DNA of 64,000 nucleotides from the IMG/VR virus record IMGVR_UViG_3300028909_000001; one strand, written 5' to 3'. This DNA comes from a virus (lineage: Duplodnaviria > Caudoviricetes). The number at the start of each line of letters is the position of its first letter. Positions within the stretch are counted from its first letter, which is position 1. The notes under the pieces are model-generated. The model did no database searches and was not told where the DNA came from. It worked only from the letters and a program-made list of their open reading frames with translations. The position numbers were made by a program, and so were the translations under genes. Shown piece after piece: positions 37,091 to 61,140 of the stretch.

Positions 37091-37615
37091 ATGACAATAA
37101 CTAAAAGAGACGATAGATGGTATGATGAACGAGGTAATAGTTGGAGAACAGAAGAATCAGCTACTACATACTCACTTACCCTAATTAATTGTAGAGATTG
37201 TAGTAATTGTAATAATTGTATAGGTTGTAGTAGTTGTAGTAGTTGTAGTGGTTGTAATAGTTGTAGTGGTTGTAGTACTTGTTATAATTGTAGTGGTTGT
37301 AGTGCTTGTAATATTTTTAATTATTGTCATGATTGCAGTAGTTGTTTTAATTGTTATAGTTGTACTGATTGTAGTAATTGTAGTGATTGTAATTATTGTA
37401 GTCGTTGTAGTGATTGTAGTAGTTGCAGTAATTGTATTGATTGTAATATTTGTAGTGATTGTAGTTATTGTAGTAGTTGTAGTAGTTGTACTAACTGTAA
37501 TCATTGTGAATTGTGTGGAAAATTAGTTGATCAAAAGTTTCAAGAAAAGATTAAAGACCCATTAATTAGGACAGAGTTTAATGTAGAAAACAGGTTACTA
37601 GAACCAGACTTATAA
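37091..37615 (+). CDS. Cys-repeat family protein, copy 4 (RLLEPDL)
   Basis: Family architecture. Confidence 0.85.
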   Translation: MTITKRDDRWYDERGNSWRTEESATTYSLTLINCRDCSNCNNCIGCSSCSSCSGCNSCSGCSTCYNCSGCSACNIFNYCHDCSSCFNCYSCTDCSNCSDCNYCSRCSDCSSCSNCIDCNICSDCSYCSSCSSCTNCNHCELCGKLVDQKFQEKIKDPLIRTEFNVENRLLEPDL

Positions 37616-37619
37616 ATTT

Positions 37620-37901
37620 ATGCAGTTAATTGAACAAACAATACTAGACTATATTGTAAAACCTGATAAACTTGAAACTAAGTTGTCTCATATTATTGGA
37701 TTTAATATAGTCAAAAACAAGCTATCACCAACCTCAATCAAATGTGTTACTACAATACTAGAACAGGAAAAGGATGCAGTGGATTATTTTACTGTTCATC
37801 CATATACTAGGCTAGGTTGTGATAATACCAATTATGATAGGCAAAATGATTCTTTGTACCAATCACCTAACCAATTTCGTTACTTAACATACACTGATTA
37901 A
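37620..37901 (+). CDS. Hypothetical protein
   Basis: 93-aa ORF. Confidence 0.55.
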   Translation: MQLIEQTILDYIVKPDKLETKLSHIIGFNIVKNKLSPTSIKCVTTILEQEKDAVDYFTVHPYTRLGCDNTNYDRQNDSLYQSPNQFRYLTYTD

Positions 37902-38674
37902 TGACCTGGCGCTTCTCACATTCAAGTATAGGAAGTTACAAGCAATGTCCTAAGAAGTATGAACTTACCTACCTTCAAAAAGGTAAAGTACAAAAAGAGG
38001 ATACAGTTGAACTATTCTTAGGAAAAAGGGTGCATGAATGTTTAGAAGTATTATATCACTATGCTAATTTAGGCAATACCTGGCTTTTAAAAGATTTGAC
38101 TGATCTATTTATCGTTTTATGGGAAGAGAAATGGAATAATGATATAAAGATAGTTAGATTCGGCCTACCTGCTCTACATTACCTTGATTTAGGTATAAAA
38201 CAACTAACTGACTACTATAATAAGTATCATCCTTTCAACCAACACAAATCCCTGAGTTTAGAGCAGAAGCTATATTTTAATTTAGCCCAAGATGAAAAGT
38301 ATGTAATGTCTGGAGTAATTGATAGGATAGAAGAAATTGAGCCTGACTATCTAGCTATTCATGATTATAAGACTGGTAAGAATATGATGAGTCAGAAAGA
38401 ATGTGACTCAGACCGACAACTTGCTACTTATGCTATTGGGGTTTTAAATAAATATCCTGCTACTCAAAAAATTGATTTAGTCTGGCATTATCTACTATAT
38501 AATGTTGAAGTTGTATCTAGTAGGACTGCTGAACAATTAGAAAAGTTAAAGGTTGAACTGATAACAGATATTGATACTATATCTAAAGCTGTTACAGATA
38601 ATAACTTCAAAACTAATATATCACGTTTATGTGATTGGTGTGAAGTTAAGAAATTTTGTCCTGCTCACAAATAA
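37901..38674 (+). CDS. RecB/Cas4-like PD-(D/E)xK nuclease
   Basis: S-x-S...CPK, GVIDRI...IHDYKTG, QLATY, C-terminal CDWC-x5-C. Confidence 0.85.
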   Translation: MTWRFSHSSIGSYKQCPKKYELTYLQKGKVQKEDTVELFLGKRVHECLEVLYHYANLGNTWLLKDLTDLFIVLWEEKWNNDIKIVRFGLPALHYLDLGIKQLTDYYNKYHPFNQHKSLSLEQKLYFNLAQDEKYVMSGVIDRIEEIEPDYLAIHDYKTGKNMMSQKECDSDRQLATYAIGVLNKYPATQKIDLVWHYLLYNVEVVSSRTAEQLEKLKVELITDIDTISKAVTDNNFKTNISRLCDWCEVKKFCPAHK

Positions 38675-38679
38675 TTTTA

Positions 38680-38755
38680 GGCTGTATAGTGAAAGTGGAT
38701 ATCATACAATTCTTCTAAATTTGAGTTCCTGGTTCGATCCCAGGTACAGCCACCA
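38680..38755 (+). tRNA. tRNA-Arg(TCT)
   Basis: GGCTGTA/TACAGCC, CTTCTAA loop, TTCGATC, CCA. Confidence 0.88.
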
Positions 38756-38819
38756 TTTTAAAACCGAAGCCGTTGAACTTCATTAAATCTTCAACAAACA
38801 ACAAATAAACACTAACTAT

Positions 38820-39362
38820 ATGAATAAAGTACCTATTACTAAAACCGCCCTACAAGCACTTTCAACTCCTACTAAAGATGTGATTGACAAGGCTTCACCA
38901 CTAATTAAACGCTTTGCTGAAATTATCATGGGTTATTATAGCCCTGAAGAACCAGCTGTTTTTGAGTCTGAAGGAGATAAGACAGTCCAAGCTTTGTTTG
39001 ATAAATGGCCTAAAGATGATACTACTTTGCGGCTAGCTGAATTGACTGAGGCTATTTACGGATATAAGCCTGTTGTTAAAGATAATAAGACGATTAAATT
39101 TGGAGAATTGATTAAGTACAATAGTGACGTCTATGTAACTGTGCATAGTGATAGTAATAGTTTTTATGTTGCTTCAGTGAATGGAGCAAATTGTCTACGT
39201 CTATATCCAAATAATGCTATTAATAAAGTTACGGCTGCTGAAGCTGGTATTTTTGTTAAAGAATTCTTGAAAGTTAAACCTAGTATATTACTTACTACGC
39301 TAGGTAAGGTAGCTATCAGTATTGTTTTAGAGTTTTTGGAACAGGTTGGAGATAATATTTAA
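38820..39362 (+). CDS. Hypothetical protein
   Basis: 180-aa ORF after a G-poor leader. Confidence 0.65.
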   Translation: MNKVPITKTALQALSTPTKDVIDKASPLIKRFAEIIMGYYSPEEPAVFESEGDKTVQALFDKWPKDDTTLRLAELTEAIYGYKPVVKDNKTIKFGELIKYNSDVYVTVHSDSNSFYVASVNGANCLRLYPNNAINKVTAAEAGIFVKEFLKVKPSILLTTLGKVAISIVLEFLEQVGDNI

Positions 39363-39368
39363 TCTAGT

Positions 39369-39444
39369 TGGTGTGTAGCTCAATTGGTAGAGCAATCGAT
39401 TGTTACTCGATAGGTTCTTGGTCCGACTCCAAGCACACCAGCCA
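39369..39444 (+). tRNA. tRNA-Asn(GTT)
   Basis: TGGTGTG/CACACCA, ATCGA-TTGTTAC-TCGAT, CCA. Confidence 0.9.
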
Positions 39445-39449
39445 ACATT

Positions 39450-39593
39450 TGCTAGGTAGTTTAATATTATGTGTTATAATGATGACTTCAATAGACTATC
39501 TGCTAGCGTAGTTGCGACCCATTATTAAACGCACTTGTAAAACCACAGCTTTCTAAGCTGTTGATGTCGTGTCAAGAACGACCCTGGCTGTCA
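39450..39593 (+). ncRNA. tRNA-Arg(TCT)-like RNA with a 71-nt insertion in the D-loop
   Basis: GCTAGG/CCTGGC acceptor, GTTT/AAAC D-stem split by 39466-39536, ACAGC-TTTCTAA-GCTGT, GTCGT/ACGAC T-stem, TCA end. Confidence 0.55.
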
Positions 39594-39597
39594 ATTT

Positions 39598-39780
39598 ATG
39601 AATGAACAACAACGTAAGAAAAAACTAGTAGATGTAATAAATCTGGTTGATGATGAACTTAGACTAGTTATCAAAGCAACTTATGCTAAAGAGCGTACAA
39701 CTGAGGAAAGACTAGCAATTGCAGATATAATAGAGGCTCAAGGCCGACTATTAGATGCACAGTCACGTCTCGAAAAATAA
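39598..39780 (+). CDS. Small helical hypothetical protein
   Basis: 60-aa ORF. Confidence 0.55.
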   Translation: MNEQQRKKKLVDVINLVDDELRLVIKATYAKERTTEERLAIADIIEAQGRLLDAQSRLEK

Positions 39781-39786
39781 ACTTTT

Positions 39787-39861: not shown

Positions 39862-39869
39862 ATTTAAAT

Positions 39870-40296: not shown

Positions 40297-40704
40297 ATGA
40301 CAATAACTAAAAGAGACGATAGATGGTATGATGAACGAGGTAATAGCTGGGATACTGAAGAAGCAGCTACTTTATACTCACCTACCCTAACCGATTGTAC
40401 TAATTGTTATAATTGTTATAGTTGTACTAATTGTAGTCATTGTAGTAGTAGTTGTATTAATTGTAAAGATTGTAGTAGTTGTAGAGATTGTTATAATTGT
40501 AGTAATTGTAGTAGTTGTAGAGATTGTTATTATTGTAGTAATTGTATTAATTGTAATAGTTGTAGAAGATGTAGTCGTTGTGATAGCTGTAGTGATTGTA
40601 GTGAGTGTATTGGTTGTAATGACTGGACTAATAATAAGAAATATGAACCAGTAATTAGACCATTTATAGATTGTAGAGATAGACTATTAGACCCTTATTT
40701 ATGA
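40297..40704 (+). CDS. Cys-repeat family protein, copy 5 (RLLDPYL)
   Basis: Family architecture. Confidence 0.85.
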   Translation: MTITKRDDRWYDERGNSWDTEEAATLYSPTLTDCTNCYNCYSCTNCSHCSSSCINCKDCSSCRDCYNCSNCSSCRDCYYCSNCINCNSCRRCSRCDSCSDCSECIGCNDWTNNKKYEPVIRPFIDCRDRLLDPYL

Positions 40705-42460: not shown

Positions 42461-42534
42461 ACACACGTAATTTAATAGTAGAATATTTGCCTGATTAGCG
42501 AATTGTACTTGTGCAACTCAAGTCGTGTGTACCA
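42461..42534 (+). tRNA. tRNA-Ile(GAT)
   Basis: ACACACG/CGTGTGT, TTTGC-CTGATTA-GCGAA, T-loop TGCAACT, CCA. Confidence 0.85.
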
Positions 42535-42559
42535 ATTTAAACGAACAAAACAAACATCC

Positions 42560-42871
42560 ATGAACAAATTTAATACAACAATGATAAAATTTATTCCAGC
42601 AATGGTAACATTAGCAGTATTATACTTTATTGCTGCTATTTTCGTTGGTTATTATACGGCAAACAGAGACAAACTACTTCAAAAGCAGAGAGAAGAACAA
42701 TATAAAGTGATATTAATAAATGCATATCTCACAGGTTATGAAGATGCACAAGATGTTTATGGTAAGATGATTAAGAATGAATTCCATAATCATACTGACT
42801 TAACAAATTATTCACAAACAGCCTATGATAACTTTTGTACTAACACAGTGAATAAGTATCCGTTACCATGA
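42560..42871 (+). CDS. Membrane-anchored hypothetical protein
   Basis: N-terminal hydrophobic helix. Confidence 0.6.
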   Translation: MNKFNTTMIKFIPAMVTLAVLYFIAAIFVGYYTANRDKLLQKQREEQYKVILINAYLTGYEDAQDVYGKMIKNEFHNHTDLTNYSQTAYDNFCTNTVNKYPLP

Positions 42872-44331: not shown

Positions 44332-44643
44332 ATGCCTACAAAAATACAAGATTGTAAAGGTTTATCTGTTTGTATTAATAATCATGTCTTCAAATCTAAT
44401 GAGGTTAGATTAATACCATTTAGTGCTGCTGAAAAAGAATGTAAATGTGTTCTTTATACTGATAGTGACTATGTTATAAAAAGACGAGAGCCAGTAGATC
44501 TAGAATTTCCTGGATTTTTATTAGCTTGTCCAGTCTGTAATGTTATTCAGATAGACGGTTTTAGAAATGCCCCTACTAATTCAACACCAATAAAAGGTGT
44601 TGATAATACAATACCTGAGAGGAGATTAGAAATAGATTTATGA
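44332..44643 (+). CDS. Tagged hypothetical protein (RRLEIDL)
   Basis: 103-aa ORF with Cys pairs, ends in tag. Confidence 0.7.
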   Translation: MPTKIQDCKGLSVCINNHVFKSNEVRLIPFSAAEKECKCVLYTDSDYVIKRREPVDLEFPGFLLACPVCNVIQIDGFRNAPTNSTPIKGVDNTIPERRLEIDL

Positions 44644-45562: not shown

Positions 45563-46015
45563 ATGAAGATAACAAAACGAGAAGATAGATGGTATGACGA
45601 AAACGGTAATAGTTGGTCTACAGAAGAACTAGCTACTAGATACTCTCCTACTCTAACCAATTGTAGTAATTGTAATAATTGTAATTATTGTAGAGATTGT
45701 AGTTATTGTAGTAGTTGTATTTATTCTAATGGTTGTAGTAGTTGTAGTGAGTGTAATGGTTGTAGGAATTCTCTTAATTGTATTAGTTGTAATTGGTGTA
45801 GTAGTTGTGGTAGTTGTAATAGTTGTATTAGTTGTAGTGTTTGTAGTCTTTGTAGAGATTGTACTTATTGTAGTAATTGTAATAATTGTAGAAAATGTGA
45901 AAATTGTTATTTCGTTAGTAGTCTTGAAAATTACGCCCCACTTCTTAAATTTGAACCATCTTCAACTAGACCAGAATTAGATATTAATGATAGAAAACTA
46001 GAACCAGACTTATGA
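45563..46015 (+). CDS. Cys-repeat family protein, copy 6 (RKLEPDL)
   Basis: Family architecture. Confidence 0.85.
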   Translation: MKITKREDRWYDENGNSWSTEELATRYSPTLTNCSNCNNCNYCRDCSYCSSCIYSNGCSSCSECNGCRNSLNCISCNWCSSCGSCNSCISCSVCSLCRDCTYCSNCNNCRKCENCYFVSSLENYAPLLKFEPSSTRPELDINDRKLEPDL

Positions 46016-46731: not shown

Positions 46732-47523
46732 ATGCGTGAAATGTATGATATTGTATTAAAGAAATCTATATTTATTTTAGATAAAAAGTTAATGTCGGTT
46801 AGTCGAGAACTTGGTCTGGATTATACTGCAGTCTCCAAACTTCTACACAAAGAACAATTCCACGTAGTTGGTAGATATATACTACCAGAGAATAAAGATA
46901 AGATATTTACTTTAGTTAATTATGATACTGGTGAAGAGTATGACTGTATAACTAATAAGAGTTTAAAACATCATTTTAATCAAGAACTTACAGAGAATGA
47001 AATTAAGTATGTATATGAATTATTATCTGGCAGGCAATATTTAGCTTCTATTTGTGATCGAGCTCTTATTAAGAAGGGTGTAATTAAAGATGGAAATTTC
47101 GTTAATATCAAAGCTTCTTCTATTAGATATAATAAGGAAAGAGAAGCACAGTTATATCGATGTACAACTGCCAGAGATTTGAGAGGCAGGTTGGCTAATA
47201 TAATACAAGCAGTAATAAATAAAAGAAAAAACTCAGCCATAAAATCATTAGTTGGTTGCACTTATAATGAATTAGCTCAACATCTATCTAATCGATTTAC
47301 TTCACAAATGACTTGGGGTAACTATGGAGAATGGGTAGTGGACCATATAATACCGTTGTCATTGTTCGATTTAAGTAATAAAGAAGAAGTATTAAGAGCT
47401 AATCACTATACTAATTTACAACCTTTATGGTCTTCTAAAAATATTGCTGAGAAATACGGTGAGTTTAATTATATCAGCAATAGTGAGAAGAATTGTAAGA
47501 ATATACTAGGCGGAAGAATTTAA
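46732..47523 (+). mobile_element. HNH homing-endonuclease-like gene
   Basis: MTWGNYGEWVVDHIIP...NHYTNLQPLW; abuts tRNA-Gln. Confidence 0.8.
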
Positions 47524-47831: not shown

Positions 47832-48284
47832 ATGAAACGACCTACAAGAAAAGCAACATTAGAAGATTCAGTAACGTATATTCTAGCAGAGATTAAAGAA
47901 TTAGAAGCTTGTCAATATCTGCTTACGCAGATCATTTATAAACTTACTAATGATTATGCACCGGATGATACTCTTTCTGATAGTGTAGCTAAGATAACTG
48001 AAAGAATAACTCGTAAAAAGTGCAGGCTGTTTGAACAATTAGCCACAATTTCTGTTCTTAGCCCAACTGCTGAAGCTAAGTTAAAACAAAGATTAATCGA
48101 TAAATTAAATAAATCTGGTTCATATTTCAGCAATTTTGTTAATCAATCTTGGACTGATATCTCTACCAACCCTGAAGAATTAAAGCAAACTATAAAAGAT
48201 CAGATGAGTAAAGCATTACAAGTAAGAGAGGATGAGGTAGATATGATAGCAGTACCTAAAAGGAAGTTAGAACCAGATCTATGA
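47832..48284 (+). CDS. Tagged helical hypothetical protein (RKLEPDL)
   Basis: 150-aa ORF ending in tag. Confidence 0.7.
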   Translation: MKRPTRKATLEDSVTYILAEIKELEACQYLLTQIIYKLTNDYAPDDTLSDSVAKITERITRKKCRLFEQLATISVLSPTAEAKLKQRLIDKLNKSGSYFSNFVNQSWTDISTNPEELKQTIKDQMSKALQVREDEVDMIAVPKRKLEPDL

Positions 48285-48736
48285 AGATAACTAAACGAGA
48301 AAATGATAGATGGTATGACGAAAACAATAATAGTTGGGAAACTAAAAAATTAGCTACTTTACACTCACCTACCCTAACTAATTGTAGTTGGTGTGGTGGT
48401 TGTAGAGATTGTAGAGATTGTAGAGATTGTAGAGATTGTAGAGATTGTAGTAATTGTAGTGATTGTAGTAATTGTAGTTGGTGTGGTGGTTGTAGTTATT
48501 GTATTTGTTGTAATCAGTGTATAAGTTGTAGTTATTGTAGTGGTTGTAGTAATTGTAGTTATTGTAGTCATTGTAATAATTGTAGTGATTGTGGTTATTG
48601 TCATTATTGTAGAAAATGTGAAAATTGTTATCTCGTTAGTAGTCTTGAAAATTACGCCCCACTTCTTAAATTTGAACCATCTTCAACTAGACCAGAATTA
48701 GATATTAATGATAGAAAACTAGAACCAGATCTATGA
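48281..48736 (+). CDS. Cys-repeat family protein, copy 7 (RKLEPDL)
   Basis: Family architecture; 3' ~120 nt nearly identical to copy 6. Confidence 0.85.
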   Translation: MKITKRENDRWYDENNNSWETKKLATLHSPTLTNCSWCGGCRDCRDCRDCRDCRDCSNCSDCSNCSWCGGCSYCICCNQCISCSYCSGCSNCSYCSHCNNCSDCGYCHYCRKCENCYLVSSLENYAPLLKFEPSSTRPELDINDRKLEPDL

Positions 48737-49107
48737 AGATAACTAAACGAGAAAATGATAGATGGTATGACGAAAACAATAATAGCTGGGATAGTGAAGA
48801 ACTAGCTACTTTCTATTCACCTACCCTAACTACTTGTAGTTATTGTAGTGGTTGTAGTTATTGTAGTAATTGTAGTAGTTGTAGAGATTGTAGTTATTGT
48901 AATCTTTGTAATGATTGTACTCGTTGTACTAATTGTGATTATTGTGATAATTGTAGTCATTGTGGTTATTGTAGTGATTGTAGTGATTGTTTAGGTTTAT
49001 ATAATTATCGAGATAAAGAAAATTTAGAACCTCAAGTAAGAATATTACCTCCAACATCAAGAATAGAATTAGATATTAATGATAGGAAATTAGAACCAGA
49101 CTTATGA
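48733..49107 (+). CDS. Cys-repeat family protein, copy 8 (RKLEPDL)
   Basis: Family architecture; tandem with copy 7. Confidence 0.85.
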   Translation: MKITKRENDRWYDENNNSWDSEELATFYSPTLTTCSYCSGCSYCSNCSSCRDCSYCNLCNDCTRCTNCDYCDNCSHCGYCSDCSDCLGLYNYRDKENLEPQVRILPPTSRIELDINDRKLEPDL

Positions 49108-51617: not shown

Positions 51618-52328
51618 ATGGAACAAACATTACAATTACAACATTTAACAAATAATTCTGACAGCGCATTACCTTCTTTCTCTACTTTTACTGAACCAGG
51701 TATGTCACAATCAGAGCTATTACTAACTAGAATAGATACTCTGGAAGCTGGGATTAGGGAGATTAAAAATATAGGAGCAACTATAGATAAAACGTTAAAT
51801 AGTATACTTGATTTGATTGAACTTAAAGAAGCTAATCAACCAGCTACTACTGAAAACTTTACGCTAACTCCTACACCATCAACTAACGATGTAGCAGTTT
51901 CAATTATACCTACAGCAACTAAAAAATTGCTTAAGAAGGCAGAACAAGAAGGTGTTGTAGAAAAAATGCATGATGCTTTTTCAAATAATCCAATATTGAA
52001 TGCTAATAAAAATAAATTGGTTCACGCATCTCTACATAAATTGTTTGTATTGTCCTTGGTATTTGATGGCCGCTTTTCGAGTCAAGATGCTAAGAAGGCC
52101 TTGTTAGAATATGGCTTCAATTATGCTGAACAAAATGGACCTACCGCCTTATTACATGATTTTGCTAAACGAGATTGGTTGACCGAAGTTGCACCTGGAG
52201 ATACTACTCAGAATAAAAAACTTTCGTTCTATATCGTGAATCAAAAAATCCTCTCTGTTATTGCAATATTGTTAAACCCGGCTATTTTTATTGAATTGTA
52301 TGATGATAGTAGAATAACTACTGCATAG
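51618..52328 (+). CDS. Hypothetical protein (possible C-terminal wHTH)
   Basis: ATG after G-poor leader; track start lies inside tRNA. Confidence 0.6.
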   Translation: MEQTLQLQHLTNNSDSALPSFSTFTEPGMSQSELLLTRIDTLEAGIREIKNIGATIDKTLNSILDLIELKEANQPATTENFTLTPTPSTNDVAVSIIPTATKKLLKKAEQEGVVEKMHDAFSNNPILNANKNKLVHASLHKLFVLSLVFDGRFSSQDAKKALLEYGFNYAEQNGPTALLHDFAKRDWLTEVAPGDTTQNKKLSFYIVNQKILSVIAILLNPAIFIELYDDSRITTA

Positions 52329-52373
52329 TTCTACATAATAGTGATTTAATAATCGAAGACTAGACCCTTTCTT

Positions 52374-52781
52374 ATGACAATAACAAAAATAGCTAATAGA
52401 TGGTATGACGAAAACAATAATAGCTGGTTATCAGAAGAAGCAGCTACTCAATACTCACTTACCCTAACTAATTGTAGTAGGTGTAGTGATTGTAGTAATT
52501 GTATTGATTGTAGAGATTGTAGTAATTGGTGTAGTAATTGTAATAATTGTAGAGATTGTAGTTATTGTATATATTGTAGTGATTGTAGTTATTGTATATA
52601 TTGTATTGATTGTAATATTTGTAGTGATTGTAGTAGTTGTATTAATTGTAGTAATTGTAGTGATTGTAGAGATTGTAGTAGTTGTATTGATTGTAGTGAT
52701 TGTACTAATAATAAGAAGTATGAACCAGTAACTAGACCATTTATAGACTGTACTAACAGACTATTAGAACCAGATTTATGA
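52374..52781 (+). CDS. Cys-repeat family protein, copy 9 (RLLEPDL)
   Basis: Family architecture. Confidence 0.85.
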   Translation: MTITKIANRWYDENNNSWLSEEAATQYSLTLTNCSRCSDCSNCIDCRDCSNWCSNCNNCRDCSYCIYCSDCSYCIYCIDCNICSDCSSCINCSNCSDCRDCSSCIDCSDCTNNKKYEPVTRPFIDCTNRLLEPDL

Positions 52782-53026
52782 CAAATATCACAGTACGAGA
52801 TAAATATGACCAATCTATAGAAGTAGGAAATAATGTTATAGTAAAGTATTATGGCAGTATTTATAAAGGAACTGTCATTAATATTAAACTAATAAATAGT
52901 ACTGGGACTAGTACCAGTGATTTTTGTGCTCATTTAAGAGATTATTGGATTAAAGTTATCATCCATTCACCTATTAGAGGAGATAAAGAGATAACTAGTA
53001 AATCAGGAGAAATAATAAGAATATGA
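52778..53026 (+). CDS. Small SH3/KOW-like protein, untagged
   Basis: IEVGNNVIV...GTV pattern. Confidence 0.5.
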   Translation: MTNITVRDKYDQSIEVGNNVIVKYYGSIYKGTVINIKLINSTGTSTSDFCAHLRDYWIKVIIHSPIRGDKEITSKSGEIIRI

Positions 53027-53323
53027 AATATAATCTAGTTCAAATTCGTAGTCATATAAAGAATCAACTTCGTGTTTCCTTTGAAGAAATTGAAATAGAA
53101 GGTGAAGTAATAGAAATCAGTTCACCAATGAATACTGGATTTTATTATTGCCTGGCTAAAAGAGGCAAGAAATATGCTTTTGATAGATTAAAGAAACATT
53201 TAATAAAAATGTATGATAAAGAAATTACAAAGATAACAAAAGAGTTAGACATGCTTAAAGCCGTAGAATATCCACATCGAAAAATAAGACATTAATGATA
53301 GAAAGTTGGAACCAGACTTATGA
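53023..53323 (+). CDS. Hypothetical protein whose tag (DINDRKLEPDL) lies in the +1 frame
   Basis: Stop at 53293-53295; tag codons at 53288-53323 one base out of frame. Confidence 0.65.
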
Positions 53324-53751
53324 CAATAACAAAAAGAGCTGATAGATGGTATGACGAAAACGGTAATAGTTGGATAACTGAAGAACTAGCTACTACTGAC
53401 TCTCCTACCCTAACTAATTGTTATAATTGTAGAGGTTGTAGTAATTGTAGAGATTGTAGTTATTGTATATATTGTAGTGATTGTAGTAATTGTATTAGTT
53501 GTATTAGTTGTAGTGATTGTAGTAATTGTAGTAATTGTTATAGTTGTATTGATTGTAGTAATTGTAGTGATTGTTATAGTTGTAGAGATTGTAGTAGTTG
53601 TATTGATTGTAGTAGTTGTAGTGGTTGTAGAGATTGTAGTAATTGTAATAATTGTATTTATTGTAGTGATTGTACTAATAATAAGAAGTATGAACCAGTA
53701 ACTAGACCATTTATAGACTGTACTAACAGACTATTAGAACCAGATTTATGA
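53320..53751 (+). CDS. Cys-repeat family protein, copy 10 (RLLEPDL)
   Basis: Family architecture; last 92 nt identical to copy 9. Confidence 0.85.
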   Translation: MTITKRADRWYDENGNSWITEELATTDSPTLTNCYNCRGCSNCRDCSYCIYCSDCSNCISCISCSDCSNCSNCYSCIDCSNCSDCYSCRDCSSCIDCSSCSGCRDCSNCNNCIYCSDCTNNKKYEPVTRPFIDCTNRLLEPDL

Positions 53752-54593
53752 AAGCACATTGGATCATAGAAAATTTTACAGATTCGGAGGATTACAGGGA
53801 TTTAATTAAAGCAGTAAAAGATTTAGGCAAGGAATGCTTTGTAATAGATAAACGTAATCATTTTGATTTTAATCCTGCCTCATTTGTGGAAAATGAATGT
53901 GTAATAGTTCAAGGGTCAATTCAAATGGTTAAGAATATAGAATCTAGGTTACCTAAAAATTGCTTTCCCATCAAATATTGCACCTTCAACAATTATCTTT
54001 GCTCGGTTTACTATCCTAAATTAAAAGACTTCCTATTTAATGATAAGTATGTATTACTTCCGCTAAAAGAACTTAAAGAGAATAAGTTTGATTATTATCA
54101 GAAGTTTGGAAAAGAAGCACTTATATTTGTAAGACCGGATAGTGGAGAAAAGACATTTCAAGCCCAACTCTTAGATTTGCAGGATTTCGACAGATTTTGG
54201 ACTAACTCTATAGCTTCCAGTACTTTAGATGATGATTTAGTACTAGTTTCTACGCCTAAAGATATAATAGGTGAGTGGCGTTTTATATGTTCAAAGTATA
54301 ACGATGGGGAAATCATAACTCAATCTACTTATCGATATCAAGGCAAGTTATGTTATATACCTGCTGCACCTGTTAAAGCAACTGAACTTTGTAAAAATAT
54401 ATTAAAGGTTCAATATTACCCAGACTCTGTTTTTTGCATAGATATCTGCCAGGCTGGGGATAACAAGTTCTATTTATTAGAATTAACCTCCTTTTCTAGT
54501 GCTGGTCTATATGCTACCGATAAAAAGAAGATAGCAACTAGAGTAAGTGAAATAACCGAATTTGAATATGGAAGAGAAATATTCTATAGGTGA
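53748..54593 (+). CDS. ATP-grasp protein (R2K/DUF4343-like)
   Basis: FVRPDSGEKTF, GEWRF, FCIDI, LLELTSFSSAGLY. Confidence 0.75.
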   Translation: MKAHWIIENFTDSEDYRDLIKAVKDLGKECFVIDKRNHFDFNPASFVENECVIVQGSIQMVKNIESRLPKNCFPIKYCTFNNYLCSVYYPKLKDFLFNDKYVLLPLKELKENKFDYYQKFGKEALIFVRPDSGEKTFQAQLLDLQDFDRFWTNSIASSTLDDDLVLVSTPKDIIGEWRFICSKYNDGEIITQSTYRYQGKLCYIPAAPVKATELCKNILKVQYYPDSVFCIDICQAGDNKFYLLELTSFSSAGLYATDKKKIATRVSEITEFEYGREIFYR

Positions 54594-54810
54594 TCTTGTT
54601 GAATTATTAAATTTAGGTGAAGGGGAGATCGTCTCTATAAAAAACACTTATTATCATATGAGAATGTTGAATCATGTATCTATTGGTAAACGTGATTTAG
54701 ATCCGGGAGATATACTTAATGTGTGGCCTGACGAAATAGTAAAAAAGATAGTAATTCTAAGACCTGATTATAGTAACTTAGATGAAAGAAGAATTGATAT
54801 TGAATTATGA
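54562..54810 (+). CDS. SH3/KOW-like family protein with tag (RRIDIEL)
   Basis: YSIGDLV start. Confidence 0.65.
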   Translation: MNMEEKYSIGDLVELLNLGEGEIVSIKNTYYHMRMLNHVSIGKRDLDPGDILNVWPDEIVKKIVILRPDYSNLDERRIDIEL

Positions 54811-55055
54811 ATGATTATAAGGTAGGTGATGTGATTGAGGCTTTTTATGTAGCATCTATTTATTGTACAGGTAAAATAGTAGAATTTAAGTTTAAGGGAG
54901 TTCTCATACGTATACTAGAAGACATGAATTACAATGATATAATATGTTATCCTAGTAATACACAGTTATTTCTCCCATTTGAAAATATCATAGGGTTTAG
55001 TCAACTTATTAGAACAGAAAACATATATGAACGAAACCTTGACCCATATTTATAA
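54807..55055 (+). CDS. SH3/KOW-like family protein with tag (RNLDPYL)
   Basis: YKVGDVI start. Confidence 0.65.
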   Translation: MNDYKVGDVIEAFYVASIYCTGKIVEFKFKGVLIRILEDMNYNDIICYPSNTQLFLPFENIIGFSQLIRTENIYERNLDPYL

Positions 55056-55293
55056 TATAGGTGATGAAGTTAGTGGGAATTATGCACAATTAGCTGAGTT
55101 TAAAGGATTTATAGTATCATATAAATTTTATTTCAATAAACCTTGGTATTATGTACAGCTAACTGAACGCATATTTATACACAAAGAATTACCTATAGGT
55201 TGGATCATAGCTGTTTCAGAGATGGAAATTAAGGAAGTTAAAAAATTAAGAAAAGAAAACATATATGAGCGAAACCTTGACCCATATTTATAA
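55027..55293 (+). CDS. SH3/KOW-like family protein with tag (RNLDPYL)
   Basis: YNIGDEV; start overlaps previous tag. Confidence 0.65.
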   Translation: MNETLTHIYNIGDEVSGNYAQLAEFKGFIVSYKFYFNKPWYYVQLTERIFIHKELPIGWIIAVSEMEIKEVKKLRKENIYERNLDPYL

Positions 55294-55483
55294 TATAGGT
55301 GATGAGGTGGCATTTTATAGAGGTACTCATAGGTTTGAAGGTAGAATAATAAATAGCGCAGCATTTCATGATCATTGGTGTGTTCAATTATTGAACTCTA
55401 AATTTATGTCAGTACATAAACAATGTTGTAATAAAATTAGAAAAGAAAATCCTTTAGATAGGAAACTAGAGCTTGATTTATGA
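55265..55483 (+). CDS. SH3/KOW-like family protein with tag (RKLELDL)
   Basis: YNIGDEV; start overlaps previous tag. Confidence 0.65.
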   Translation: MSETLTHIYNIGDEVAFYRGTHRFEGRIINSAAFHDHWCVQLLNSKFMSVHKQCCNKIRKENPLDRKLELDL

Positions 55484-56037
55484 CAATAACTAAAAGAGAT
55501 AATAGATGGTTTGACGAAAACAATAATAGCTGGGATAGTGAAGAAGAAGCTACTCTATACTCACCTACCCTAACCGATTGTACTAGTTGTTTTAATTGTT
55601 ATAGTTGTATTGATTGTAGTAGTTGTATTGATTGTAGAGATTGTAGTAGTTGTATTGATTGTAGTAATTGTAGAGATTGTACTAGTTGTGATAGTTGTAG
55701 TGGTTGCATTGATTGTAGTGGTTGTGTTGATTGTAGAGATTGTAGTGGTTGTAGTGGTTGTATTTATTGTATATATTGTAGTGATTGTAGTGAGTGTTAT
55801 GGATGTAGAGATTGTAGTAATTGTAGTAATTGTTATAGTTGTATTGATTGTAGTAATTGTAGTGATTGTAGAGATTGTAATAATTGTAGAGATTGTAGTA
55901 GTTGTATTGATTGTAGAGATTGTAGTTATTGTAGTAGTTGTATTGGTTGTAATGACTGGACTAATAACATGAAATATGAACCGGTAATTAGACCATTTAT
56001 AGACTGTACTAACAGACTATTAGAACCAGACTTATGA
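55480..56037 (+). CDS. Cys-repeat family protein, copy 11, longest (RLLEPDL)
   Basis: Family architecture, 185 aa. Confidence 0.85.
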   Translation: MTITKRDNRWFDENNNSWDSEEEATLYSPTLTDCTSCFNCYSCIDCSSCIDCRDCSSCIDCSNCRDCTSCDSCSGCIDCSGCVDCRDCSGCSGCIYCIYCSDCSECYGCRDCSNCSNCYSCIDCSNCSDCRDCNNCRDCSSCIDCRDCSYCSSCIGCNDWTNNMKYEPVIRPFIDCTNRLLEPDL

Positions 56038-56276
56038 CACAAAAGGAATATAAAGTAGGAGATGTGGTTGATTTTGAGGTTAGTAATTTGAAAGGAATAG
56101 GAACTATAACACCATATAATGGAGACATAATGTATGCTGTAATTATAGAGGAATTTCCCGGTATACCTAGTAGAACTAAATGGCATATATTTCCTGATGA
56201 AATAACAGGTATACATGTTGAACCTAGAATAGAATTTGACATCACAAAAGATAGAAGATTAGAGTTAGAACTATGA
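56034..56276 (+). CDS. SH3/KOW-like family protein with tag (RRLELEL)
   Basis: YKVGDVV start. Confidence 0.65.
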   Translation: MTQKEYKVGDVVDFEVSNLKGIGTITPYNGDIMYAVIIEEFPGIPSRTKWHIFPDEITGIHVEPRIEFDITKDRRLELEL

Positions 56277-56527
56277 ATGAATTTGAAGAAGGAATGAAAG
56301 TTATAGTTACTTTTTATAGCGGTAATAAAGCTGTAGGAATAATAATATGGTATGCTGATGATACTTCCTATGAAGTTGAAGTCTTGCATTATACAGAAAT
56401 TAATGATAAAGAGAAAACGGTGGAGACATTTCCAAATCCTTATAGTAACATTAACTTCATAAATACCGAAGCAATACCAAGTAGAACAGAGAATCCTTTT
56501 GATAGAAAATTGGAACCAGATCTATGA
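56273..56527 (+). CDS. SH3/KOW-like family protein with tag (RKLEPDL)
   Basis: FEEGMKV start. Confidence 0.65.
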   Translation: MNEFEEGMKVIVTFYSGNKAVGIIIWYADDTSYEVEVLHYTEINDKEKTVETFPNPYSNINFINTEAIPSRTENPFDRKLEPDL

Positions 56528-56775
56528 GTGAATATAAAGTAGGAGATGTTGTAGTTTATTGGTCTATTAGTTCTAACTCAGAGGCAGTTGCTAAGATAGT
56601 CGAAACCGATTGGACTAGTTTTAATTATTTAAGGGTAATTATAATAAAACATGATCATCTTAGTGCAGGTACATCAATTTATTTAACAGAGAGTGAAATA
56701 ATAAGATTGGACGGTCCCATTATAAAACACTGTTTTGATATTATGTTAGATAGAAGATTAGATTTGGAACTATAA
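56524..56775 (+). CDS. SH3/KOW-like family protein with tag (RRLDLEL)
   Basis: YKVGDVV start. Confidence 0.65.
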   Translation: MSEYKVGDVVVYWSISSNSEAVAKIVETDWTSFNYLRVIIIKHDHLSAGTSIYLTESEIIRLDGPIIKHCFDIMLDRRLDLEL

Positions 56776-56907
56776 GTAACTGTTTTACCTTATATACCAC
56801 ATTCTCTACTCCAATCTACCACTCTCTCCCCATAATCCTCCCCATCACTCACAATTTCAACTACTTACGAAACTTGTATTAACTCTATATAATAACTTTC
56901 CAACTAT

Positions 56908-57174
56908 ATGAATCCTAAAGTAGAACTAATAAAAATAAACAAAATCCCAATTAGTATAGGTGTGGATAAATACGTATTCCCTATTAAAAATAGTATAGTA
57001 CATCATAACCAAGACTCACTACTAGGCTCTACTATAGTATCAGATCCAGGTTATAGTGTATTAGGATTTCGCCGTGACCCTAAAGCTCTATCCAACCATA
57101 ATCTAGCCTTTGAACTAGCAGAACTAGCCTGGAAAATACAAGAATTTGATCTTATATATGAAAACACTAGCTAA
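56908..57174 (+). CDS. Hypothetical protein
   Basis: 88-aa ORF. Confidence 0.5.
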   Translation: MNPKVELIKINKIPISIGVDKYVFPIKNSIVHHNQDSLLGSTIVSDPGYSVLGFRRDPKALSNHNLAFELAELAWKIQEFDLIYENTS

Positions 57175-57391
57175 CTACCTCAATGACCCGGATAATGACT
57201 TAACTGTTGAACTTGATGCTGAATTATTAAAGAAGATTCAACTAGATACTCTTTATAGTCTATTAATTAAGAGTACTGAAGCCTTAAATCTGCCTGCTAT
57301 CTCTAAGGAGCATACTGATATAATGGTAATTCATTTAATCCTTAATGAAATAGAACTTTTGAAATATGGATTCAACATTAAAGAAGTGTAA
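57146..57391 (+). CDS. Hypothetical protein
   Basis: 81-aa ORF. Confidence 0.5.
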   Translation: MILYMKTLANYLNDPDNDLTVELDAELLKKIQLDTLYSLLIKSTEALNLPAISKEHTDIMVIHLILNEIELLKYGFNIKEV

Positions 57392-57414
57392 GAAACTAAT
57401 AACCTGGGCTGAGC

Positions 57415-57615
57415 ATGAAATTAAAGATTGAATACTTGAAACTACTATATAAAAGAGTACTTAACTGTATATACTATGCTTGTTTGACTGACCAATACTT
57501 AAGTTGTATAGTACTAATTATAGTTTATCCTATATCTCTTATTATAGTGAATCTATATAACAAAGTTGTAATTAAAGATAGTAAACCTAATTGTTGGAAT
57601 GATTTTTTCTTCTAA
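57415..57615 (+). CDS. Small membrane protein
   Basis: Hydrophobic CIVLIIVYPISLIIV segment. Confidence 0.5.
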   Translation: MKLKIEYLKLLYKRVLNCIYYACLTDQYLSCIVLIIVYPISLIIVNLYNKVVIKDSKPNCWNDFFF

Positions 57616-57618
57616 GAT

Positions 57619-57942
57619 ATGACAATAACAAAAAGAGCTGATAGATGGTATGACGAACGAGGTAATAGTTGGTTATCAGAAGAATTAGCTACTTTATACT
57701 CACCTACCTTAACTAATTGTAGTTATTGTGATGATTGTAGTAATTGTAGAAATTGTAGTAGTTGTAGTAATTGTAGTAGTTGTAGAGATTGTATTAGTTG
57801 TTATGATTGTAACGATTGTAAATATGTCTGTTGCCTGACAGACAGAACAAGATTTACTGCTCAATTCGAACCTGCTACAGAAGATACTATAATAAGACCT
57901 GAACTTGACATTAATAATAGAAGACTTGAAATTGAACTATGA
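57619..57942 (+). CDS. Cys-repeat family protein, copy 12, shortest (RRLEIEL)
   Basis: Family architecture, 107 aa. Confidence 0.85.
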   Translation: MTITKRADRWYDERGNSWLSEELATLYSPTLTNCSYCDDCSNCRNCSSCSNCSSCRDCISCYDCNDCKYVCCLTDRTRFTAQFEPATEDTIIRPELDINNRRLEIEL

Positions 57943-58205
57943 ATGAATTTAATATAGGTGACATTATTTCTGTAACATTTACTTTTTCTGGTAATCAAGC
58001 TATTGGTGTTGTAATTGACGATGATAATTTTATGATCACGTCTTATACTAAAGTACTTAAACCAGACTATGTAGTTAAAGGTTTATCAGACCGTGAACCT
58101 CTTTATGGATGTAATATAAGGAATATTCAACTAGTATCACGGAGTATTAGACAAGAAGTTAGACAAGAAGACCCATTTTCCCGTAACCTAGACCCATATC
58201 TATGA
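57939..58205 (+). CDS. SH3/KOW-like family protein with tag (RNLDPYL)
   Basis: FNIGDII start. Confidence 0.65.
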   Translation: MNEFNIGDIISVTFTFSGNQAIGVVIDDDNFMITSYTKVLKPDYVVKGLSDREPLYGCNIRNIQLVSRSIRQEVRQEDPFSRNLDPYL

Positions 58206-58651
58206 ATGAAGAATACCTTAAACTAGTTAAAGAACTGCAAACTACAGTAAAAATTGAATTGGACAAAGCTCCACTAAAAGATAATTACTCCCCAAACTAT
58301 CCTGAAGCATCTGTTAATACCTTGGCAGTTAATATAGGTATTATTATAGATGATAGATTTAGTGTTAATGACTTATCCAATACTAACACTATAAACCCTC
58401 CTATTAAGCTCTATTGGCTCCAGGTCACGTCCTATAATGATTTTGAAGTCTTCCTGTCTACTAGAGGTATTCCAGCCTATATCTCATTTGACGGTGATCT
58501 AGGCCCTAAAGTAAAGGATGGTGAGGATTGCGCCAAACTACTTGTAAAGGTATGTAAGGCCAATAAGTTGAAAGAACTACCTCAATACGAATGTCACTCC
58601 CCTACCCTCTCTAAGAAACAGAAGATAGAAGAGATACTATTAAACTATTGA
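58202..58651 (+). CDS. Cyclic-phosphate-processing receiver (cREC)-like domain protein
   Basis: ISFDGDLG...DGEDCAK...CHS pattern. Confidence 0.55.
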   Translation: MNEEYLKLVKELQTTVKIELDKAPLKDNYSPNYPEASVNTLAVNIGIIIDDRFSVNDLSNTNTINPPIKLYWLQVTSYNDFEVFLSTRGIPAYISFDGDLGPKVKDGEDCAKLLVKVCKANKLKELPQYECHSPTLSKKQKIEEILLNY

Positions 58652-58654
58652 TTA

Positions 58655-58954
58655 ATGAGAACAGAGCTTGAATGTAATAAGAGAGACTTGGAGGATCATC
58701 TATTATCAGAAGCTATTGAAAGCTTTAGTAATATTCTCTCTAATAATGGTTGTAATGATCTTTATATACCGAATACTGAGGAAGCTAGGCTACTTTGGGA
58801 TGAATATCAAGCTTGGAACCTCAAAACTCCTTTAACCGAGCTTAAAGGACATGTAGATTACTGGCCACCCTACGTCGATTCCAAGAATAGGTTAGTAGTA
58901 TATGATTCTTTATTCATATACTTATTGCGAAAACGTACAGGTTTGCTAGATTAG
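58655..58954 (+). CDS. Hypothetical protein
   Basis: 99-aa ORF. Confidence 0.55.
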   Translation: MRTELECNKRDLEDHLLSEAIESFSNILSNNGCNDLYIPNTEEARLLWDEYQAWNLKTPLTELKGHVDYWPPYVDSKNRLVVYDSLFIYLLRKRTGLLD

Positions 58955-58961
58955 ACTTTAT

Positions 58962-59050
58962 GCCTATGTGGTGGAATTGCTAGACACCCGGGAATTAAGA
59001 TCCCGTGACCTTCAAAAGTCGTGCAGGTTGAAGTCCTGCCATGGGCACCA
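58962..59050 (+). tRNA. tRNA-Leu(TAA)
   Basis: GCCTATG/CATGGGC, CGGGA-ATTAAGA-TCCCG, long variable arm, T-loop TTGAAGT, CCA. Confidence 0.88.
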
Positions 59051-59064
59051 ATTTAAATAACATT

Positions 59065-59262
59065 ATGGCTCAATTAATAATAAAGAATATTACCATGAAT
59101 CAAGCCAAAGTATTAGCTAGTTACTACCAAAGACAAGGGGAACAACACGCTGAAGTATGGTTTGAAGACAGAAACGAAGAAACACCAATAGTAGATGTAT
59201 CAAAATGTCCTTGGTTAATAGTAGATGAAAAAGAAGAAACTGTAACTATTATTTGTAAATGA
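59065..59262 (+). CDS. Small hypothetical protein
   Basis: ATG 14 nt after tRNA-Leu. Confidence 0.55.
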   Translation: MAQLIIKNITMNQAKVLASYYQRQGEQHAEVWFEDRNEETPIVDVSKCPWLIVDEKEETVTIICK

Positions 59263-59591
59263 AACTAACAAAACGAGAAAATGATAGATTCTATGATGAA
59301 AACAATAATAGTTGGATAACAGAACAACTAGCTACTGTATATTCACCTACGCTGATTAATTGTAGATATTGTAGTGATTGTAGTAATTGTAGTAATTGTA
59401 GTAGTTGTATTAGTTGTTATATATGTGTTAATTGTAGTAATTGTAGTGAGTGTTATAGATGTAGAGATTGTATTAGTTTGTATAGACATTACAACGAAGA
59501 AAAATTAAAACCTCAGAAGTATGACACTGAAGATACTATAATAAGACCTGAACTTGACATTAATAATAGAAGACTTGAAATTGAACTATGA
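59259..59591 (+). CDS. Cys-repeat family protein, copy 13 (RRLEIEL)
   Basis: Family architecture; C-terminus shared with copy 12. Confidence 0.85.
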   Translation: MKLTKRENDRFYDENNNSWITEQLATVYSPTLINCRYCSDCSNCSNCSSCISCYICVNCSNCSECYRCRDCISLYRHYNEEKLKPQKYDTEDTIIRPELDINNRRLEIEL

Positions 59592-60568
59592 CCACCAATA
59601 ATTTAGAAGAATTTGGTACTAAACTACCAGAACATACAGCTAAATCTAATCAGATTATGATACCTGATGCTATCCTTTATGCTGCACCAGAAGAAATCAA
59701 TGTAGCTAATGGATCAGCTCAAACTCCTACTCAATGGACGGAGCCAGTTTCAGGAATGTTTTTATCCACACCTGAAACAATTAAGAAGTTACCGTCTAAT
59801 GTATATAAGTATGTAGCTTATTCAGATAATAAATGGGGTTTTCTGAAAGTTAATATCAATGTTGACGAACTACTATTACTACCTGATAGTACTTCAGATC
59901 TAGTACTTCAAGAGATTCAAACCTTTCTAGACAATGCGGAAACCTTTAAATACTATGATGTATTGCATAGAAGAGGGTTCTTATTCTATGGTCCAGCAGG
60001 TTCAGGCAAGACTTGCTTAGTACAACAAATCATTAAGAAGGTGATTGACCAGAATGGAGTGATTTTGCTTTGTGATAACCCACAAGCTATCGAACTAGGT
60101 TTAAGAGACCTTAGAGCAGTTGAGCCAGATAGATTCATAGTTTGTCTATTCGAAGATATTGATGCCTTGATTCAGAGATATGGAGAGAAGGAGATTCTTG
60201 CTATATTAGATGGTGAAAGTCAAATCAACAAAGTCTTGAATATAGGAACAACTAATTACCCTGAAGTATTGGATAGGAGAATCATTAGACCTCGTAGATT
60301 TGATATGGTGATTAAGATTGACTGGCCTAGTGAAGCAGTTAGACGACATTATTTTAAGAATAAGCTTAAGATTGATGACAAAGAACTGGGTAAGTGGGTT
60401 AACGCCACGGATAAGTTCTCCTTCGCTGCTTGTGCTGAGTTGATGATTAGTGTTAAATGTCTGGGTAAGGATTTTGAGAAAGCAGTGGAACATTTACGTG
60501 AATTAATGAAACATAAACCAGATAGCCGGGATTTTAACAGCCCTGCAGACTTTAATATAGGACATTAG
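59588..60568 (+). CDS. AAA+ ATPase (BCS1-like)
   Basis: RRGFLFYGPAGSGKT, FEDID, TTNYPEVLD, RPRRFD. Confidence 0.85.
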   Translation: MTTNNLEEFGTKLPEHTAKSNQIMIPDAILYAAPEEINVANGSAQTPTQWTEPVSGMFLSTPETIKKLPSNVYKYVAYSDNKWGFLKVNINVDELLLLPDSTSDLVLQEIQTFLDNAETFKYYDVLHRRGFLFYGPAGSGKTCLVQQIIKKVIDQNGVILLCDNPQAIELGLRDLRAVEPDRFIVCLFEDIDALIQRYGEKEILAILDGESQINKVLNIGTTNYPEVLDRRIIRPRRFDMVIKIDWPSEAVRRHYFKNKLKIDDKELGKWVNATDKFSFAACAELMISVKCLGKDFEKAVEHLRELMKHKPDSRDFNSPADFNIGH

Positions 60569-60575
60569 TTTTAAA

Positions 60576-60664
60576 GGATAGTTAACTAGTAAAGTTACTA
60601 GAACAGTTTACTAAACTGATTGCTCCTTAACTGGAGTGGGGAGCATTACCTCAGCTATCCTCCA
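60576..60664 (+). tRNA. tRNA-Ser with unusual ACT anticodon
   Basis: GGATAGT/GCTATCC acceptor (G1G2A3), CAGT-TTACTAA-ACTG, long variable arm, atypical T-loop AGCATTA, CCA. Confidence 0.7.
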
Positions 60665-60672
60665 ATTTACTT

Positions 60673-61140
60673 ATGAAACTAACAAAAAGATATAATAGAT
60701 GGTATGACGAAAATTATAATAGTTGGGATACTGAAGAATCAGCTACTCAATACTCACCTACCCTAACTAATTGTAGTAGGTGTAGTGATTGTAGATATTG
60801 TAGTCTTTGTAATTATTGTAGTAATTGTAGTAATTGTAATGATTGTATTACTTGTATTAATTGTAGTGATTGTACTCGTTGTATTAATTGTAGAGGTTGT
60901 ATTTGTTGTAATCAGTGTATAAGTTGTAGTGATTGTAGTAATTGTAGTAGGTGTACTAGTTGTAATCGTTGTAGCGGTTGTAGCGGTTGTAGTGATTGTA
61001 CTCGTTGTATTGATTGTAGTTGGTGTAGTTTACTTATAGATAGAATAAGATTTTTCCCACAAACTGGCCCTGACAACTCGGAACTAATAACTAGAAAAGA
61101 AATAGCATTAACAGATCGAAATCTGGAACCATTTTTATGA
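60673..61140 (+). CDS. Cys-repeat family protein, copy 14 (RNLEPFL)
   Basis: Family architecture. Confidence 0.85.
   Translation: MKLTKRYNRWYDENYNSWDTEESATQYSPTLTNCSRCSDCRYCSLCNYCSNCSNCNDCITCINCSDCTRCINCRGCICCNQCISCSDCSNCSRCTSCNRCSGCSGCSDCTRCIDCSWCSLLIDRIRFFPQTGPDNSELITRKEIALTDRNLEPFL

Follow-up and report, generated by a model that had tools for sequence, protein, structure and literature searches.

Recombination among dispersed paralogs and turnover of a 9-nt unit as the probable source of variation in a phage Cys-repeat gene family

The DNA analyzed here (hereafter the window) is a stretch of 64,000 nucleotides (nt) from an uncultured phage of peat bogs (Duplodnaviria; Caudoviricetes; IMG/VR record IMGVR_UViG_3300028909_000001). 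It carries 14 paralogs of a gene family with a core of Cys-x-x repeats, all on the + strand, with 11 copies within 37091-61140 and three upstream, at 3894, 6150, and 33435. The genes are mosaics of shared tracts, their cores differ between strains by unit-sized insertions and deletions (indels), divergence between strains peaks within them, and each lineage writes its repeats with codons of its own. Our conclusion, which we hold at a probability of about 85%, is that the cores change by ordinary recombination or gene conversion among dispersed paralogs together with gain and loss of repeat units, a process of a known kind. The window corresponds to bases 21525-85524 of an 85,671-base IMG/VR viral contig with a CheckV completeness of 39% and has a G+C content of ~33%. 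Related contigs of 213-218 kb are known from peat metagenomes, and the phage genome has a size of ~220 kb.

Each gene encodes a conserved head (33-34 residues), a core with 12-42 Cys-x-x units, and a variable tail (24-39 residues) with the C-terminus R-x-L-[D/E]-x-[D/E/Y/F]-L (Table 1). Cysteine makes up 33% of the core residues. Tandem Repeats Finder (TRF) reported a period-9 array in all 14 cores, with 10-39 copies, 72-79% matches, and the consensus TGTAGTGAT or TGTAGTAAT. The core unit is TGT-AGT-RAT (Cys-Ser-Asp/Asn) and the array is imperfect; the core of copy 7, for instance, holds five tandem TGTAGAGAT units (Cys-Arg-Asp x5). Most of the residues that occupy x lie one step away from AGT and AAT. 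The first x position is occupied by S, I, R, N, Y, and T, the second by D, N, S, Y, and G, and because the two positions have different residue repertoires, the protein is under selection.

The window was compared with two collinear sister strains, L004, represented by an IMG/VR contig of a different sample, and L018, represented by an ENA scaffold of a different study. Between the family genes, 0.43-0.60% of the positions differ; a second count, for L004 over 16,355 nt, gave 0.40%. Inside the six comparable family genes, 14.8-17.4% of the alignment columns differ, a 25- to 41-fold increase. The bulk of the replaced sequence was found as exact blocks of up to 121 nt in other paralogs of the window. 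Specifically, the L004 gene that occupies the copy-5 position opens with the first 121 nt of copy 4 (head and core start), continues with blocks of copies 5, 4, 6, 9, and 4, then carries 76 nt of copy 11, and finally the copy-5 tail. A 63-nt core block of copy 4 (from 37239) recurs in the same gene. In copies 12, 13, and 14, the 3' 155-230 nt, comprising distal core and tail, are orthologous in both strains and the head and proximal core are replaced. This placement of the replaced tracts suggests that exchange has polarity.

Core length changes almost always in whole units. Gaps of at least 9 nt between orthologs were multiples of 9 in 25 of 27 cases. The copy-12 orthologs encode proteins of 137 aa (L004) and 125 aa (L018) whose tail is unchanged, and the copy-13 orthologs of these two strains are separated by a single 9-nt indel, with no mismatch. 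Their copy-8 orthologs show 3 mismatches in 393 nt. Whole genes are affected as well: copy 7 is missing from L004 and L018, and in both the span from copy 9 to copy 11, including copy 10 and an R2K_2-type gene, is replaced by small tag-ended open reading frames (ORFs; the tag is described below) followed by one hybrid family gene. Relatives carry 12 family copies in 20 kb. The initial annotation, made from the letters of the window, had proposed recombination or gene conversion among dispersed paralogs plus repeat slippage. The strain comparison bears out the former through the concentrated divergence and the exact paralog matches, and the latter through the unit-sized gaps and the ortholog pair that differs by a single unit.

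Within the window, the shared blocks reported initially were recovered. A 33-nt block at 48500-48532 recurs at 60898-60930 without mismatch and is extendable to 34 nt (copies 7 and 14), 45886-46008 matches 48607-48729 over 123 nt with one mismatch (copies 6 and 7), and the 92 nt at 52690-52781 are identical to 53660-53751 (copies 9 and 10). Tails common to copies 12 and 13 and to copies 2 and 5, also reported initially, gave local alignment scores of 63 and 57. The 92-nt and 123-nt blocks run from the core end into the tail, and the adjoining heads are only 80-84% identical. Head identity and tail similarity were uncorrelated across the family (Mantel r = 0.00, p = 0.50), and pairs with identical tails have heads that are just 76-84% identical, given a family mean of 82%. 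This supports the claim that heads and tails assort independently.

As the cores are of low complexity, block lengths were judged against a null in which the non-Cys codons were shuffled within each core and the longest pairwise match was recorded. Between two shuffled cores, this longest match reached 27 nt at the 99th percentile and never exceeded 33 nt. Among the 91 pairs of real cores, 18 exceeded 27 nt and 10 exceeded 33 nt, with a longest match of 60 nt (copies 10 and 11); a minority of the shared core blocks is clearly beyond chance. That the mosaics are artefacts, either chance identities in low-complexity sequence or chimeric metagenome assembly across paralogs, is highly improbable in our view. 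The other 73 pairs fall within the null, and Logan unitigs do break in family genes, but 10 pairs lie beyond the null maximum and the 92- and 123-nt core-to-tail blocks are longer still. Furthermore, L011, L012, and L013 (two ENA assemblies and one JGI assembly) show 100% identity to the window across as much as 14.7 kb, with up to six cores included. L004 and L018 were assembled separately and carry the same alternative cores, so these cores are not assembly noise. Of the words sampled from 52300-61200, 92-94% are present in each of 20 peat-metagenome runs, in Logan k = 31 contigs and unitigs that break inside family genes, join paralogs and strains, and are uninformative on within-population variants.

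Several observations weigh against recombination and unit turnover as we read them, or limit their reach. For 73 of the 91 core pairs, nothing is shared beyond the codon-shuffle null, and chance in low-complexity sequence suffices. The number of independent exchange events is lower than the block counts suggest, as L004 and L018 share several alternative tracts. Of the recombination tests that had been called for, the comparison of heads with tails showed discordant relationships, and the pairwise homoplasy index (PHI) test on the 14 heads was not significant (p = 0.37; 337 of 595 informative site pairs incompatible). Exact adjacent unit duplications were not significantly enriched in the window cores (20 observed, 14.9 expected, p = 0.09), and the case for slippage consequently rests on the strain comparisons. 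Finally, a dedicated mechanism may be encoded in the ~60% of the genome beyond the 85.7-kb contig that was searched.

The proposed mechanism combines two processes. Units would be gained and lost through slippage or unequal exchange in a 9-nt coding minisatellite, and ectopic homologous recombination or gene conversion would copy tracts of tens to ~120 nt between paralogs. The same ectopic exchange may also fuse, delete, or duplicate whole copies along with the genes between them. The features expected of ectopic gene conversion were found in the family, namely identical tracts bounded by diverged sequence, ortholog tracts that match paralogs, and gene segments with discordant relationships. 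Likewise, period-9 arrays in the 14 cores and strain differences in whole units are those of a coding minisatellite. We infer that recombination machinery of the UvsX/SbcCD type encoded by the phage drives the exchanges. PHROG matches in the window include SbcCD-like genes, a helicase, a DNA polymerase, and a UvsX-like recombinase, and an ATP-dependent DNA ligase is encoded as well.

The codons of the cores carry a trace of this history. According to the initial annotation, nearly every core codon ends in T. This holds for 990 of 1103 core codons in the 14 copies (89.8%), compared with 69.4% expected when the codon usage of 75 other phage ORFs is applied to the amino-acid composition; third-position T is thus above expectation. 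The wording was slightly too strong, since 85% of the non-Cys codons end in T. The nominal z of 16.8 for this excess is inflated, since copies and units are non-independent. The excess is confined to the cores, with T-ending shares of 38.5% in the heads and 36.1% in the tails, equal to or under expectation. Because heads and tails of the same genes lack it, it is not a gene-wide expression bias. In the cores, Ser is written AGT in 97% of cases (background 38%), Cys TGT in 99% (87%), Gly GGT in 95% (50%), Ile ATT in 82% (47%), and Thr ACT in 100% (56%). Arg departs from this pattern, being AGA in 47 of 59 core codons.

The DNA of distant homologues with the same head plus (Cys-x-x)n plan (L014-L017) was examined for comparison. 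L015 uses TGC for 22 of 23 Cys, TCT for 13 of 15 Ser, and GAC for all 11 Asp codons, with 33% of codons ending in T. L017 uses TGC (33/33), AGC for Ser (21/21), and GAT for Asp (11/11), with 32% T-ending. In L016, with 92% T-ending codons, Cys is TGT (68/68), Ser TCT (43/46), and Arg CGT (7/7), and L014, with 78%, has mixed TGC and TGT for Cys, AGT for Ser, and CGT for Arg. As other lineages use other codons uniformly, what the arrays have in common is essentially a single codon for each residue, with no rule on T. Judged from these sequences, such uniformity is the signature of amplification and homogenization of one short unit, and the T-ending bias is best described as a lineage-specific by-product of concerted evolution of the 9-nt unit. 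All units would descend from one 9-mer and be kept alike by exchange, so that each residue is written with one codon, which in the lineage of the window happens to end in T.

Alternatively, T-ending codons might not be inherited from the unit but be selected for translation, e.g., to match the tRNA pool of phage or host. The window encodes 16 tRNA genes interspersed with the family; among these, Asn(GTT), Tyr(GTA), Arg(TCT), and Ile(GAT) read codons found in the cores. Additionally, a cloverleaf with a long variable arm (z = -3.9) is located at 60576-60668 (+). This tRNA-like element has a possible ACU anticodon, an encoded CCA, and a minimum free energy of -29.2 kcal/mol, and it lies 8 nt before copy 14. 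However, the heads and tails of these genes show no excess of T-ending codons, and homologues in other phages are uniform for non-T codons. Scans of the window found no tRNA-Cys, tRNA-Asp, or tRNA-Ser(GCU), and the ACU element was called neither by ARAGORN nor by the Rfam tRNA model, even at E up to 10; as far as its sequence can be read by eye, the D-loop GG and T-loop TTC are missing. We regard this explanation as quite improbable.

The initial annotation had also raised a diversity-generating retroelement (DGR), which would mutate specifically the adenines of an AAT-rich template and so place NNT codons around invariant TGT. The high share of T-ending non-Cys codons and the occurrence of 14 of the 16 NNT codons in the cores are compatible with it, and the contig covers only ~39% of the genome. 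The annotation found no reverse transcriptase in the window, and this extends further: no RVT_1 match (E up to 1) was obtained in the 85.7-kb contig or in a 41-kb sister record, while control genomes do match. An AAT-rich template was not found either; AAT reaches at most 24% of the non-Cys codons in any copy, and in the 85.7-kb contig period-9 TGT arrays are confined to the 14 genes. The codons themselves do not fit. The Arg codon AGA requires a third base other than T, Ser is AGT 225 times and TCT twice, and AGA, ATA, and AAA violate a fixed third-position T. Unit position 4 is A in 88% of the units, and the x positions differ in their residues. Core lengths vary, hence a single template cannot fit, and homologues of the same architecture use TGC, AGC, and GAC. 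Furthermore, a DGR target has a variable region that differs among otherwise identical genomes, and the cores covered by L011, L012, and L013 are invariant. The family resembles DGR targets in that variation is concentrated in a defined protein segment with NNT-like codons. It differs in the absence of a reverse transcriptase or template from the 85.7-kb contig, in codon and position patterns, and in the invariance of near-identical assemblies. On the ~39% of the genome searched, a DGR as the writer of these cores is therefore very unlikely, and recombination among paralogs with unit turnover accounts for them better.

A second feature of the region is the tag at the C-terminus of the family proteins. 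In the form [D/E]-R-x-L-[D/E]-x-[D/E/Y/F]-L, it ends 30 of 159 ORFs (at least 40 aa, + strand), 16 of which lie outside the Cys-repeat family. Examples of tagged ORF spans are 5486-5986, 32900-33438, 34210-35501, 44332-44643, 47832-48284, 54568-56775, and 57939-58205. In 22 of the 30, the stop overlaps an ATG as ATGA. The tag peptide itself appears to be under selection, because its Leu, Arg, Glu, and Asp codons vary synonymously. Two orphan tag remnants lie in no ORF, FNNRRLDPFL-stop (52340-52373) and DINDRKLEPDL-stop (53284-53323), and terminate at the ATGA start of copy 9 and copy 10, respectively. These remnants upstream of copies 9 and 10 are probably recombination scars. A second small family also ends in the tag. 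Its members have 80-90 aa, start with M-x-E-[Y/F]-K-[V/I]-G-D, and stand in tandem between Cys-repeat genes (54562-56775 and 57939-58205 in the window, 13102-14431 in L004), with copy number and sequence varying between sister strains.

Tag, junctions, and hot spots could be taken as parts of a purpose-built diversification system, in which the conserved heads and the tag-ATGA-head junctions would act as recombination handles, possibly stimulated by the HNH endonucleases nearby, to produce strain-specific binders, decoys, or peptide precursors. The 25-41 fold concentration of divergence in family genes, the distinct residue preferences kept at the x positions, the location of the orphan remnants at junctions, HNH-type genes at 46732-47523 and 62617-63288, and the dense arrays of relatives (12 copies in 20 kb) speak for such a system. 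Nevertheless, neither a dedicated recombinase or invertase nor a silent cassette or expression site was found, and all copies appear equally intact. The strain is stable over three assemblies and in the 20 peat runs, and repetitive paralogs are recombination hot spots without special machinery. We consider a purpose-built system unlikely; the "combinatorial diversification system" of the initial annotation is unproven, as no dedicated machinery was found. A related proposal is that the (Cys-x-x)n genes form a strain-specific repertoire of anti-defense binders or decoys or of modified-peptide precursors, diversified by recombination, maintained by selection, and delivered by the tag to a common hub. 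This proposal is tentative and rather doubtful.

The proteins had no match in Pfam or NCBIfam at E up to 1. Five copies tested matched PHROG phrog_15341 (E 5.7e-07 to 2.7e-29), which is annotated as unknown function. A head-only profile retrieved 612 cluster representatives (50% identity) at E up to 0.001, mostly viral where labeled, and among the best 150 of them the head was nearly always located at the N-terminus of a small protein. Cys repeats follow the head in the eight sequences read, with the exception of the spurious P0129. This protein and P0106, both large proteins retrieved by the head profile, were rejected as relatives, since they are unrelated Cys-rich or low-complexity proteins. 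Neighbors in the ESM Atlas belong to unnamed clusters, the top-listed of which are 50-71% viral. Wider relatives carry other C-terminal domains after the core, e.g., DUF3310; the core therefore behaves like a variable-length module between two ends. Among named phages, a tblastn search with copy 10 gave no match, and only the C-terminal domains of distant relatives were matched, in hypothetical proteins. A scan of GTDB genomes with a head pattern found no relative, and in the literature we found no report of a phage Cys-x-x repeat family.

An AlphaFold model based on a 76-sequence alignment was confident for the head, with a predicted local distance difference test score (pLDDT) of 92-97 for a hairpin, a strand, and a helix, and scored below 55 for most of the core. 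With a 14-sequence alignment, the pLDDT was 47. Foldseek found no match in the PDB, and VIA-align gave a best Z of 2.9 with the alignment limited to model residues 1-47, which cover the head and the initial units of the core. The sole sequence-profile match in the PDB was the Tenebrio molitor antifreeze protein 1EZG (E = 0.028), and it is probably compositional. Both proteins have periodic cysteines, and the antifreeze beta-helix, which has a disulfide ladder, is built from repeats of 12 residues with a Cys every 6. Set against this likeness are the core pLDDT of mostly below 55, the lack of a fold match, and the high E value of the profile match. Metallothionein-like metal binding by the clustered cysteines is a candidate role; 33% of the core residues are Cys, and Pfam gave no match. 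With low confidence, we picture the proteins as small Cys-ladder or metal-binding modules that probably act inside the cell and probably experience diversifying selection in the conflict between phage and host.

Three known systems invite comparison. In the hyperplastic regions of T4-type phages, modular shuffling reportedly proceeds via promoter-stem-loop cassettes, as Arbiol et al. are said to have described in 2010. There, as here, small accessory genes of a large recombination-proficient phage are exchanged at short repeated junctions. The junction of the present phage is, however, coding (tag, ATGA overlap, and head), and the interiors of paralogous genes are exchanged too.

A second parallel is interlocus (ectopic) gene conversion with concerted evolution in multigene families, of which MASP (mucin-associated surface proteins) of Trypanosoma cruzi are an example (PMC2691823). 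Conserved N- and C-termini that enclose a variable, repetitive center are common to MASP and the phage family. In the phage, the copies are dispersed and are mosaics of tracts from other copies; mosaicism was tested only in the phage. The phage genes are not homologous to MASP and differ in lying in a phage genome, in their 9-nt unit, and in encoding small, intracellular-looking proteins with no signal peptide.

The closest sequence analogy is to thiazole/oxazole precursors of the heterocycloanthracin type, in which a (Cys-x-x)n core is flanked by a conserved N-terminal region on one side and a conserved C-terminal motif on the other (Haft, 2009; PMC2674419). Their cores vary between strains by whole Cys-x-x units, and the Bacillus maturation operon is located far from the precursor gene (PMC2674419). 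The plan of head, (Cys-x-x)n, and C-terminal motif is the same in the phage family. In contrast to these precursors, the phage proteins match no NCBIfam or Pfam model (E up to 1), have cores that reach 42 units, and have relatives with globular domains after the core, which is unusual for peptide precursors. No match to the YcaO cyclodehydratase (PF02624) was found within the 85.7-kb contig, the genome being ~39% complete.

The coordinates of the family copies and of the recombination genes are summarized in Table 1.

Table 1. Cys-repeat gene copies and associated features of the window
Feature	Coordinates	Strand	Product	Core	Remarks
Copy 1	3894..4340	+	148 aa	3993-4226	TRF 9-nt array
Copy 2	6150..6545	+	131 aa	6249-6455	tail in common with copy 5
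Copy 3	33435..33902	+	155 aa	33534-33812	40-nt core block in common with copy 6
Copy 4	37091..37615	+	174 aa	37190-37522	
Copy 5	40297..40704	+	135 aa	40396-40623	
Copy 6	45563..46015	+	150 aa	45662-45913	
Copy 7	48281..48736	+	151 aa	48383-48634	
Copy 8	48733..49107	+	124 aa	48835-48996	ATGA start overlaps copy 7 stop
Copy 9	52374..52781	+	135 aa	52473-52709	final 92 nt identical to copy 10
Copy 10	53320..53751	+	143 aa	53419-53679	60 nt in common with copy 11, 46 nt with copy 9
Copy 11	55480..56037	+	185 aa, 42 units	55579-55956	
Copy 12	57619..57942	+	107 aa, 12 units	57718-57825	
Copy 13	59259..59591	+	110 aa	59361-59477	tail in common with copy 12
Copy 14	60673..61140	+	155 aa	60772-61032	34-nt block with rare codons in common with copy 7
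Segment between copies 9 and 11	52782..55479	+			copy 10, two small ORFs, R2K_2-type gene 53748-54593, four tag-ended small ORFs
UvsX-like recombinase gene	26936..28147	+			PHROG match; putative role in exchange
SbcCD-like genes	4356-5489 and 6556-8616				PHROG matches

Accessory genes are located between the family copies. Precomputed Pfam labels on identical proteins identify an R2K_2 (ATP-grasp) gene at 53748-54593, cREC_REC at 58202-58651, Tad4 at 61137-61466, and HNH_5 at 62617-63288. The other HNH-type gene (46732-47523) was recognized from a motif in its translation. Rfam placed a tRNA with the anticodon GAU (Ile) at 42461-42531 (+) with 51 bits, which was missed by ARAGORN. The TTG-initiated ORF 42503-42871 is doubtful, as its start overlaps this tRNA. 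From its gene content, the region of family copies and tRNA genes looks like an accessory or counter-defense island.

For the stretches compared, near-identical strains of a large environmental phage differ at a few repetitive paralogs and the accessory genes between them, with divergence raised 25-41 times. The codon comparison offers a practical test to tell a DGR from concerted evolution: whether the third base agrees between homologous arrays, or only the restriction to a single codon for each residue does. If the repertoire proposal were true, the family would represent a recombination-based phage counterpart of DGR-type diversification. The process itself is of a known kind, acting on a phage gene family that is undescribed and widespread, and whose members, with a head followed by (Cys-x-x)n, are candidates for work on structure and metal binding.

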